41,233 nt of DNA from a virus, in IMG/VR virus record IMGVR_UViG_2576861615_000004, positions 1 through 41,233 of that record. One strand, given 5' to 3'. The position numbers were made by a program, and so were the translations under genes. The notes below the pieces were generated by a model. It saw only the letters and a list, made by a program, of their open reading frames with translations. It was not told the origin of the DNA and made no database searches. Position 1 is the stretch's first letter. The number at the start of each line of letters is the position of its first letter. Positions 24,576 to 26,424 of this stretch are shown one piece after another.

Positions 24576-24814
24576 GCGCCCTCCGCCGGGTACAGGTGCT
24601 CCATGCCGGCGCCGGCAGCGAAAGCCTTGGCGAGTGCAAGATAGCCGTGTGACTCGAGTGCGCCGCAGAGGCTCGCGACGAAAGCGCGCGGCCGCGGTCG
24701 GTCGTCGCGCCTGCAGTGATTTTCAGCGGATTCGGCCGCTCGATTGATGCAGCCGAGCAGCATCGTTTCGAGCTGGCGTGCAGAACGGGGCGTGTTGTCC
24801 ATCACGCGCCTCAA
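24572..24814 (-). CDS. hypothetical protein (80 aa)
   Basis: The ATG at 24814 overlaps the upstream micro-ORF stop (ATGA), and its own stop overlaps the next ATG. Confidence 0.6.
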   Translation of the reverse strand: MRRVMDNTPRSARQLETMLLGCINRAAESAENHCRRDDRPRPRAFVASLCGALESHGYLALAKAFAAGAGMEHLYPAEGA

Positions 24815-24939
24815 ATGTCGAATGCCGGGGCGATCGCGCTGGCGATCAGGTAGAGCGCGAACAGGGCGACGAGCGGATGCCAGTCGCGACGTTCCGCCGC
24901 GCGCGCTGCGCGGGACCAGTGTTTGTTCAGGGTGTGCAT
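24811..24939 (-). CDS. 42-aa single-TM micro-protein, first gene of the early-left operon
   Basis: Read from the reverse strand: MHTLNKHWSRAARAAERRDWHPLVALFALYLIASAIAPAFDI. A GGGAGG SD lies upstream. It is too short to appear in the ORF track. Confidence 0.5.
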   Translation of the reverse strand: MHTLNKHWSRAARAAERRDWHPLVALFALYLIASAIAPAFDI

Positions 24940-24987
24940 TGAATTCGCCTCCCGTGGCGTAGGACGCCGACTAAGTGAGGCGGATGG

Positions 24988-25025
24988 TAGCGTAACGCGA
25001 ACGACACAGCAATAGCGAAACGCGA
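24988..25025. promoter_or_regulatory. operator pair at the early-left promoter region (OL-like)
   Basis: The 13-bp near-palindromes tagcgtaacgcga (24988-25000) and tagcgaaacgcga (25013-25025) lie 25 bp apart start to start. They have the same consensus and spacing as the pair between cI and cro. Confidence 0.65.
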
Positions 25026-25094
25026 ACTCTTTTAATTCCTACGCGAACGATTTCTGTAGGATAGAAGTAAGGTGCAATTTTTTAAGAAGCCTGA

Positions 25095-25114
25095 TACTGT
25101 ACGGATATACAGTA
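25095..25114. promoter_or_regulatory. LexA (SOS) box
   Basis: tactgtacggatatacagta matches TACTGT-N8-ACAGTA (CTGT-N8-ACAG core). It overlaps a possible TTAAGA-N18-TATACA promoter and lies 34 nt upstream of the ATG at 25148. Confidence 0.75.
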
Positions 25115-25147
25115 TTCTGGCTGTTCTGTTTAGTGCGCGTGGGGAAA

Positions 25148-25393
25148 ATGAAAAGAGCAATTCAGCGCGAAGTGGCGATTTCGGTGAGGGCCGACGAGCC
25201 AGCGGAAGCCGCGCCGAGGCTGGCGTTGGCGAGTGTGGCGGGGAGGTTTCGCCGGGATCGGGTGTCGACCCTGACGATTACTGTGGGGATGGATGGCGCG
25301 ATCAGTCACCGTGCGCGTGTGCTGCCGGAGCACCGGCAGGAGATCGCTGATTGGTTGATAGCGTTAGCGTGCCGGATAGGCGCGCCGGATTAG
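25148..25393 (+). CDS. small LexA-controlled protein, candidate antirepressor (Tum-like role)
   Basis: The 81-aa ORF has high third-position GC. A GGGGA SD lies 5 nt upstream, and the SOS box sits in its promoter region. It converges on cI with a 4-nt overlap. The function is inferred from context only. Confidence 0.55.
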   Translation: MKRAIQREVAISVRADEPAEAAPRLALASVAGRFRRDRVSTLTITVGMDGAISHRARVLPEHRQEIADWLIALACRIGAPD

Positions 25394-25794
25394 CTTGCTT
25401 TGCGGGTGCGCGAGGAGACGCCAGCCTTTCCCGGCGTGTCACCTTCTTCAACAAATGGCGTTGAGTGGCGGGCGGCCGTGCTCTGGACGAGCAGGCCATT
25501 GACGAAGCCAATCACCTGGGCGCGCTGCATGTCGGAAAGTCGGCTCCAGCCAGCAATGATCTCCGGATCGTTGTCGAGCCAGCCGATTTCCTTTCCGGTC
25601 TTTTCCTCGATGTGGCGGGCAATGTCGTCCGATATCCCGCGAGGCTTTCCAGTGCGCGAGTCTTTCGACGCATTGACCCACTGGCGTATCTGAGTGTCCG
25701 TTTTGCCTATCAGTTCTGATAGGCGGCCGACGCTGCCGAGCTCTTCAATTAGGGCGCGAAGTTGTTCCCGCCTGATTTCGTGGCACGTTTTCAT
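25390..25794 (-). CDS. cI: CI-type repressor, HTH only (no S24/LexA-like peptidase domain)
   Basis: The HTH region is GRLSELIGKTDTQIRQWVN...RGISDDIARHIEEKTGKEIGWLD. The gene is divergent from cro across the operator pair. At 134 aa it has no Ala-Gly/Ser-Lys autocleavage module. Confidence 0.7.
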   Translation of the reverse strand: MKTCHEIRREQLRALIEELGSVGRLSELIGKTDTQIRQWVNASKDSRTGKPRGISDDIARHIEEKTGKEIGWLDNDPEIIAGWSRLSDMQRAQVIGFVNGLLVQSTAARHSTPFVEEGDTPGKAGVSSRTRKAS

Positions 25795-25830
25795 TCTCGT
25801 ATTGCATCCGATATTGATGTCGACGGGAAT

Positions 25831-25868
25831 TCGCGAAACGCGATTGACCAGACGGTAGCGTTACGCTA
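25831..25868. promoter_or_regulatory. operator pair between cI and cro (OR-like)
   Basis: The 13-bp palindromes tcgcgaaacgcga (25831-25843) and tagcgttacgcta (25856-25868) lie 25 bp apart start to start. The consensus is T(A/C)GCG-N3-CGC(G/T)A. Confidence 0.7.
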
Positions 25869-25872
25869 TCGT
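25844..25872 (+). promoter_or_regulatory. candidate PR promoter (TTGACC-N17-TATCGT)
   Basis: -35 at 25844-25849 and -10 at 25867-25872, flanked and overlapped by the two operators. The -10 element ends 7 nt before the cro ATG. Confidence 0.45.
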
Positions 25873-25879
25873 TCGCGTC

Positions 25880-26119
25880 ATGGAACTGACTACATACCTC
25901 TCGAGTGCGGACGCGCCGTCCGCCGCCGACTTCGCCCGCCGTCTTGGCACTGCGCCGTCGGTGGTGAGTCAGTGGCGCACCGGTGCGCGACCTGTACCGA
26001 TCAAAAGCTGCGTCGCCATTGAGCGCGTTACTGCAGGCGAGGTAACTCGCCGCGATCTCCGCCCCAACGACTGGCACGACATCTGGCCGGAACTCGCTCG
26101 GCAAAAGGAGACTGCATGA
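25880..26119 (+). CDS. cro: Cro-like HTH regulator
   Basis: FARRLGTAPSVVSQWRTGARPVPIKSCVAIERVTAGEVTRRDLRPNDW is the typical Cro/YdaS-type pattern. The gene is divergent from the repressor. Confidence 0.8.
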   Translation: MELTTYLSSADAPSAADFARRLGTAPSVVSQWRTGARPVPIKSCVAIERVTAGEVTRRDLRPNDWHDIWPELARQKETA

Positions 26120-26424
26120 CGCGTCCCCGCTCACGCTGGCCCCTTCTCCGACGCTTGCTGATCGATCATCGCAGCCCGATTGCGCGACTCGCGTATCGAC
26201 ACAACTTTCGATGGGTCGATTGGCTTCAGGAGGCGTATATGCGTCGACTAATCCGCGCCGGCACCGAACCCGACTTTGTTGTCGGCCCGGATGGGCGCGT
26301 CATTCCCCGTCGTCGATCGGTATCAATCCCGCCTTCTTTGCTTGCTTCTCGAGATCGTCGTAATCGAGCTCCATCGTCCGACGACATTCCGGGCACCAGA
26401 CCGGCGGATCTAAGCGGCCATTGA
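26116..26424 (+). CDS. hypothetical early protein (102 aa)
   Basis: The ATG overlaps the cro stop (ATGA). Third-position GC is moderate for the first ~60 codons and drops in the last ~40 codons, where the ORF overlaps a better-supported minus-strand gene. Confidence 0.45.
   Translation: MTRPRSRWPLLRRLLIDHRSPIARLAYRHNFRWVDWLQEAYMRRLIRAGTEPDFVVGPDGRVIPRRRSVSIPPSLLASRDRRNRAPSSDDIPGTRPADLSGH

Follow-up and report, generated by a model that had tools for sequence, protein, structure and literature searches.

The antirepressor gene tum of coliphage 186 is located far from the repressor gene cI. Coliphage 186 and the Gifsy prophages possess an uncleaved repressor of approximately 136 aa together with a small, LexA-repressed antirepressor that binds it (Tum, and GfoA, GfhA and GftA, respectively), and in the Gifsy prophages the LexA box is in front of an operon of dinI and the antirepressor gene, 1.3 kb past the replication genes (PMC3121763). 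In phi106, an "extended arbitrium" phage of Bacillus, a LexA site precedes a small open reading frame (ORF) that overlaps a convergent gene for a short helix-turn-helix (HTH) repressor, which is followed by a divergent Cro-like gene; the peptide AimX was shown to inhibit the repressor AimC, and an antisense effect was considered by the authors to be most likely not consequential (bioRxiv 10.1101/2025.11.23.689978). The logic of such a circuit is known from 186 Tum, the Gifsy prophages, phi106 AimX-AimC and the Rep-Ant pair of Salmonella phage SPC32H, and the layout has been proven in phi106. A similar layout is described here in IMG/VR record IMGVR_UViG_2576861615_000004, a complete virus genome of 41,233 bp with direct terminal repeats, which was analysed over its whole length (the window): a LexA box (25095-25114), a gene for an 81-aa protein of a family designated A (25148-25393, plus strand, ATG start), and a convergent gene for a 134-aa CI-type repressor (25390-25794, minus strand).

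Among named phages, KS9 of Burkholderia is nearest to this genome, with 88.5% identity across half of the segment 24000-27200, and the window is a KS9-like temperate Burkholderia phage. In the initial annotation, made from the sequence alone, the small gene was predicted to be a LexA-controlled, Tum-like antirepressor. The circuit is supported by selection on the small gene, by conservation of box, small gene and repressor as a unit, by the mutual exclusivity of this unit with the S24 peptidase domain, and by homology of the repressor to Rep; with a probability of about 0.65, the small gene encodes a LexA-derepressed protein antirepressor that would bind the repressor and serve as the SOS input of the lysis-lysogeny switch. 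The term 'Tum-like' suits the logic of the circuit but not the sequence of the protein, for which neither a DinI/Tum, ANT or Bro-N match nor homology to Ant of SPC32H was found; as it was not found to belong to any of these protein families, the term describes function only.

The Rep-Ant pair of SPC32H was reportedly the subject of studies by Kim and Ryu in 2013 and by Kim et al. in 2016. Ant breaks the Rep tetramer (PMC9638917), and the pair is also covered in PMC7380047. The window locus resembles that of SPC32H in that the N-terminal DNA-binding domain of Rep (structure 5D50) is homologous to that of the window repressor, in that Rep lacks an S24 domain, and in that the gene for the small Ant protein (86 aa) starts 20 nt downstream of a LexA box (CACTGTATAAACATACAGTA). 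It differs in that ant is approximately 14 kb from rep, beside the tailspike gene, rather than tail-to-tail with it, that Rep is longer (199 aa) with another C-terminal part, and that SPC32H is an epsilon15-like podovirus of Salmonella; alignment of family A with Ant (hhalign probability 0.05%, E 0.84) detects no relationship between them. The likeness to AimX-AimC of phi106 is one of layout (box, small ORF, convergent short repressor), for which homology is not expected: AimX, of 29 aa, is under the additional control of AimR/AimP signalling, the phage hosts belong to the Firmicutes and have another LexA motif, and the arbitrium module of phi106 has no counterpart in the window phage. Tum and the Gifsy antirepressors have no sequence relationship to the window protein, and the genome contains no DinI/Tum match. 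The systems that share most with the window are gp40-gp41 of KS9 and gp51/gp52 of phiE125, which have a repressor of the same family (35-43% identity), the box at the same distance and a convergent overlap, but in which the protein in the slot belongs to family B, unrelated to family A of the window.

A repressor without an autocleavage domain

The 134-aa repressor had been described as an HTH protein with no autocleavage domain, and both Pfam scans and an AlphaFold2 (AF2) model confirm this. From end to end (residues 1-133) it fits the profile phrog_12107 ('transcriptional repressor', E 8.9e-54); it has only weak, HTH-type matches in Pfam, and is 35% identical to gp41 of KS9, the inactivation of which gave lytic virions (Lynch et al. 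2010, as cited in PMC3091744 and PMC13366799). The model (predicted local distance difference test score, pLDDT, of 73) consists of an HTH domain at approximately residues 1-76, a single long helix at residues 88-106 and a basic tail that is disordered, and no S24 domain (PF00717) was found in the repressor or in any frame of the genome. When the profile of the repressor family was compared with solved structures, the one match was 5d50_A (E 3e-7, residues 1-82), for which a search with the single repressor sequence gave only E 0.86; chains of 5d50, the 'Rep-Ant complex from Salmonella-temperate phage', also occupy ranks 1-3 of the Foldseek results (best E 7.6e-4), and the Rep sequence of 5d50 is that of the rep gene of SPC32H. 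Ala81-Gly82 was considered as a cleavage site of the repressor and rejected, because the Pandoraea homologue has Pro-Gly and a catalytic domain is missing.

Burkholderiales and other Proteobacteria also encode proteins of 216-260 aa in which the same N-terminal DNA-binding domain is joined to Peptidase_S24 at the C-terminus, the peptidase being present in 8/8 long relatives tested. No LexA box occurs at the downstream position with any of the 11 relatives of this size range in the genome collection, and the slot contains no box in any of 21 IMG/VR relatives of at least 183 aa (one poor, incidental site occurs at +644); the box is found with all five of the short, S24-less relatives in Burkholderiales genomes. 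This either/or relation of box and S24 on one DNA-binding domain speaks most strongly for a module that provides the repressor with the SOS input it lacks itself. There is no other SOS input in the window genome, which has no S24 domain, no ANT (PF03374) or Bro-N (PF02498) domain at E <= 0.1, no DinI match and no second LexA box. Repressors of 143-168 aa with neither S24 nor a box were noted in Pseudomonas phage Atpa001 (L010) and at the IMG/VR loci L066-L068 and L115-L122.

The LexA box and the SOS motif of the hosts

The near-perfect LexA box reported in the initial annotation at 25095-25114 is a perfect, palindromic match to CTGT-N8-ACAG, is conserved in relatives, and has the same motif as boxes at the lexA genes of hosts. 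It reads TACTGTACGGATATACAGTA (TACTGT-ACGGATAT-ACAGTA) and ends 33 nt upstream of the 81-aa ORF. Within the 41,233-bp genome it is the sole CTGT-N8-ACAG and also the sole match to TACTGT-N8-ACAGTA with up to two mismatches, but at least one site was present in 28/100 and 19/100 shuffled sequences, respectively; as one box per 41 kb is not improbable by chance, the case rests on conservation. In four close relatives the arms of the box are invariant, and its N8 spacer and the approximately 12 nt upstream are variable; the arms are likewise kept, with different spacers and flanks, in KS9, phiE125, BgManors32 and phiBt-TXDOH.

The LexA motif of the hosts was read from the host of the KS9 prophage and from Pandoraea capi. 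Two CTGT-N8-ACAG boxes are located upstream of lexA in each of these genomes, and one is upstream of recA in the KS9 host; no such box was found near recA in Pandoraea capi. Only eight sites in the 7.8-Mb Burkholderia genome of the KS9 host are within one mismatch of the 20-mer, and the box of the KS9 prophage is among them. By its sequence, the box at 25095-25114 uses the SOS motif of the hosts themselves, and would presumably be occupied by LexA. A second good LexA box is present elsewhere in KS9 (NC_013055, 37609-37624, CTGTATAAAAACACAG), phiE125 (NC_003309, 28078-28093) and BgManors32 (NC_070955, 26564-26579); the window phage and PhiBt-E264.1 have the box of the immunity region only.

Conservation of the box, small gene and repressor

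The four close homologues of the 81-aa ORF are all in Burkholderia prophages with the same neighbouring genes, and a more distant homologue in a Pandoraea capi prophage (46% identical, also 81 aa) has the same 4-nt overlap and the same box. At every family-A locus examined (L012, L031/L032, L033 and L034), a LexA box is located 30-94 nt upstream of the small gene, with one mismatch in L033, and the gene has a stop overlap of exactly 4 nt with that of a convergent HTH repressor, followed by a divergent gene of Cro/YdaS-like type. Both the box and the overlap are kept even in L033, where the family-A gene is next to a 200-aa HTH_3 repressor with another type of N-terminus. The box, small ORF and convergent repressor have been inherited as one unit across Burkholderia, Pandoraea and other hosts.

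The unit extends beyond family A. The repressor homologues of KS9, phiE125, phiBt-TXDOH, PhiBt-E264.1 and BgManors32 (35-47% identity to the window repressor) are each followed, approximately 290 nt past the stop codon, by a perfect TACTGT-N8-ACAGTA and then a convergent small ORF, and in IMG/VR, CTGT-N8-ACAG is found 275-298 nt past the stop codon of 39/41 repressors of 128-136 aa. The occupant of these 39 slots is a family-B protein (the family of KS9 gp40) in 36 cases and a family-A protein in three. Family B, characterized by the motif RC[KR]xGD...DGRW...TRDWLF, has no detectable kinship with family A (BLASTP E 1.4; hhalign probability 0.08%), and those members of either family that bear a database name, gp40 included, are all called 'hypothetical protein'. 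The subtype of family B tracks that of the repressor, so that repressors of 128, 130 and 133 aa are paired with proteins of approximately 100, 109 and 95 aa that overlap them by 40, 68 and 33 nt, respectively (the range over family-B loci is 33-74 nt). The comparison indicates that the slot is older than its content and that its payload is swappable.

Two loci of this kind deserve separate mention. In L013, a metagenome-assembled genome of Noviherbaspirillum, a LexA box (TACTGTGTTTACGTACAGTG, on the strand of the small ORF) is located 246 nt past a 115-aa repressor and precedes a convergent ORF of approximately 57 aa, possibly of a third kind, unlike families A and B. The gp51 coding sequence of phiE125 (NC_003309; L007 2621-2809, minus strand) spans the LexA box as annotated; the family-B frame (109 aa from TTG, or from an ATG just upstream) begins downstream of the box and has 68 nt in common with gp52, and the database annotation of gp51 therefore looks wrong.

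The 81-aa protein

The good coding statistics attributed to the 81-aa ORF are borne out by conservation between genera and by the ratio of nonsynonymous to synonymous differences (pN/pS), which is 0.19-0.33 in frame in pairwise comparisons, whereas neither of the remaining frames gives less than 0.95; nucleotide differences among the homologues are mostly at third codon positions. The ORF is a real protein-coding gene under purifying selection. When a profile was searched against 1.84 billion cluster representatives, 15 proteins matched at E <= 0.001, of which 11 are small proteins (80-130 aa), and homologues occur in Pandoraea and other Burkholderiales. They share a core of approximately 60 residues, RFR..VSTL..DG.ISHR..VLPEHR..A.WL..LA.RIG..D (in which VLPEHR is also given as V.PEHR), and the N-terminal third is variable. 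The conserved C-terminal two-thirds is likely an interaction module, and the variable N-terminal part may serve as a linker or confer specificity.

The 81-aa protein has no match among the models of Pfam, PHROG or NCBIfam. DinI is similar to it in length and is LexA-regulated; kinship with Tum/DinI was rejected, as PF06183 was detected neither in the ORF and eight homologues (Pfam, E up to 10) nor in the six frames of the genome.

The C-termini of the repressors encoded beside family-A genes are R-K-A-S* (in the window, at 25390-25410, in Pandoraea, and in the 200-aa HTH_3 repressor of L033, which is unrelated in other respects) or similar basic tails, and the DNA of the junction, GAY-TAG-CTnGCyTTrCG, is conserved in family-A loci (the window, L012, L033, L032 and L034). 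Possible explanations of this conserved end are a recombination joint, a degron and a contact site.

Proposed SOS switch and alternative explanations

In the switch proposed here, the 134-aa repressor of a lysogen would occupy the left and right operators (OL and OR), and LexA bound to the box at 25095-25114 would block a weak promoter, the spacer of which the box fills. DNA damage would lead to RecA-stimulated cleavage of LexA, freeing this promoter, and the 81-aa protein would be made. It would then bind the repressor and prevent operator binding or oligomerization, with no proteolysis, so that the early-left and early-right promoters (PL and PR) would open. The initial annotation had noted the 4-nt overlap with the convergent repressor gene and the absence of a terminator between the two genes, both of which were verified in the sequence and by a terminator scan, and because of this tail-to-tail overlap the SOS transcript must run antisense into the repressor gene. 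Antisense transcription may constitute a second, smaller layer of control through which less repressor would be resynthesized; it is ranked as secondary because the frame is under purifying selection and because the peptide of phi106 alone inhibited its repressor. Mitomycin C treatment yielded B. thailandensis phages that carry this repressor family (PMC12860723), which is weak support for the switch since that study reports no uninduced control, and ultraviolet (UV) light was reported to release phage from B. thailandensis (Woods et al. 2002, as cited in PMC7266877).

Several observations weigh against this proposal. We infer, rather than observe by direct contact, that the adjacent repressor is the target of the small protein, and likewise the manner of its inactivation. 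No similarity of the 81-aa protein to any known antirepressor could be detected; its AF2 model, built from eight sequences, is poor (pLDDT 55.8), with a beta-beta-beta-alpha core and residues 1-36 disordered, and a Foldseek search with this model gave no match at E <= 0.001, to DinI or otherwise. A generic scan found no sigma-70 promoter at the LexA box, and the promoter hexamers that can be placed there are weak by comparison with the consensus. Among the S24-less relatives of 143-168 aa, some lack the box entirely (those of Pseudomonas F116-like phages are an example), so the association with the box is clade-specific, and the phages with such repressors must have another means of sensing induction signals. 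Lambdoid phages, moreover, classically carry accessory genes between cI and PL, and the replacement of payload A by payload B would also fit a slot for such genes (morons).

It is accordingly conceivable, though unlikely, that the small gene is an SOS-induced moron with a role in, for example, exclusion, defence, toxicity or modulation of the SOS response, and that the prophage is induced by another route. The equivalent position in lambda holds rexAB. Two unrelated families in the same slot, with members named only as hypothetical proteins and with no match to a fold or family, are what such a cargo region might contain, but a moron would leave unexplained why the LexA box stays at a fixed position through the payload swap, why the slot is filled only with an S24-less repressor, and why family A was never seen away from a convergent repressor and keeps the stop-stop overlap beside a different type of HTH; furthermore, the genome has no other SOS input. 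Less probable still is an effect of RNA, in which the SOS transcript would lower repressor synthesis by transcriptional interference or antisense pairing and the ORF would be secondary. The overlap of the genes (4 nt here and 33-74 nt in family-B loci), the lack of an intervening terminator and the convergent geometry kept in every relative agree with this explanation. Purifying selection on the frame and conservation of the protein between genera indicate, however, that the protein matters; halting the synthesis of a stable repressor would be a slow route to induction; and AimX of phi106, encoded in the same layout, inhibited its repressor by itself, antisense transcription being judged most likely not consequential.

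A direct role of LexA as co-repressor of the early-left promoter, with the small ORF being incidental, is very improbable. LexA co-represses with RstR in CTXphi (PMC3323433), and the box is situated between the divergently oriented early-left operon and small ORF, approximately 45 nt from the third OL repeat (OL3). Nevertheless, the box tracks the start of the small ORF (about 11-94 nt upstream of it across loci) and not the leftward genes, its distance from the first leftward start codon being 156 nt here and approximately 220 nt in KS9, and it is upstream of the OL operators, where PL must be, rather than over them. A protein antirepressor under LexA control is preferred over each of these explanations.

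Implications for related phages

The protein-antirepressor proposal admits a bolder version, which is tentative: past a non-cleavable repressor there may be a fixed LexA box, an 'SOS socket', into which at least two unrelated protein families have been plugged, each being the cognate antirepressor of its repressor variant, with induction on two layers at once, through inactivation of the repressor protein and through shut-off of new repressor where SOS and repressor transcription would collide at the conserved gene overlap. If so, antirepressor and repressor would be exchanged as one immunity cassette, and the specificity of the antirepressor, not that of the operators alone, would set the immunity and cross-induction groups of Burkholderia prophages.

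No paper was found that mentions a LexA box in phages of the KS9/phiE125 type or how they sense DNA damage, in a search that did not extend to the primary papers on KS9 and phiE125. What appears to be new is the connection of two unnamed protein families with a LexA box, the predicted SOS input of the KS9/phiE125 group, and the quantified either/or relation with S24 on one DNA-binding domain. Among temperate siphophages of the Burkholderia cepacia complex and the B. pseudomallei group, these phages have been studied best, and KS9 was the first to be engineered, by knockout of its repressor, for therapy work. The proposal spans the whole clade (approximately 45 loci were examined) and predicts which prophages cross-induce. 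It would also provide a Gram-negative instance of the layout of LexA box, small protein and convergent short repressor that was proven in phages of Bacillus as late as 2025; its presence in Burkholderia phages favours the idea that this design is common and has been assembled more than once from unrelated components.

Organization of the immunity region

The order of the immunity region is early-left operon (minus strand, with its first start codon at 24939), OL, LexA box, 81-aa ORF (plus strand), repressor (minus strand), OR and Cro-like gene; the operator arrays, the box and the overlapping stop codons have no strand. The OL array (24988-25053) was recognized by its repeat families D1, D2 and D4 and inverted pairs I1, I3 and I4, and its motif, TAGCG(T/A)AACGCGAAC / ACGCGAACGAT, is present in three copies, invariant in four relatives, with inverted copies at OR. 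The small gene is preceded by a Shine-Dalgarno-like GGGGA (25140-25144, plus strand) that ends 3 nt 5' of the ATG and is kept in L003, L004 and L006. The two convergent genes meet in TTAG (25390-25393), in which their stop codons overlap (TAG on the plus strand, TAA on the minus strand). A scan found no intrinsic terminator within 24700-26200; a structured RNA at the junction of the small gene and the repressor gene was considered and rejected, the RNA fold there being ordinary (z = 0.27).

The LexA box had also been predicted to overlap a plausible promoter, of which a weak candidate spanning the box, found under looser criteria, stands against a generic sigma-70 scan that is blank at this position. 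The best candidate, located by hand with a custom scan (25091-25118, plus strand), consists of a -35 hexamer CTGATA (25091-25096), a 16-nt spacer that the box fills, and a -10 hexamer TATTCT (25113-25118), with an 8/12 match to the consensus; the exact promoter is only putative. The geometry recurs in relatives, with the -35 element at -4 to -11 and the -10 element at +13 to +18 from the start of the box, and the hexamers of the relatives are better (TTGATT-N17-TACAGT in KS9, TTGGCA-N16-TACAGT in phiE125 and TTGGCT-N18-TATTAT in L031). From the third OL repeat towards the LexA box, a 36-bp block (25043-25078, CGCGAACGATTTCTGTAGGATAGAAGTAAGGTGCAA) is nearly invariant in the four close relatives, with one T/C difference in L004, and the next 12 nt or so vary among them; the block may include a -35/UP region for transcription of the small gene, or be bound by another protein.

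On the other side of the repressor gene, the OR array (25827-25880) was identified by repeat search between the repressor and cro. The Cro-like 79-aa HTH protein (25880-26119, plus strand; Pfam YdaS_toxin 2.7e-13, P22_Cro 1.4e-5) is encoded by the first gene of the early-right operon and is followed by CII-like, DnaB and O-like genes. The candidate for PR, TTGACC-N17-TATCGT (25844-25872), is the sole sigma-70 promoter of consensus grade in the region, and ends 7 nt before the ATG of cro (25880), which implies a leaderless or nearly leaderless cro mRNA.

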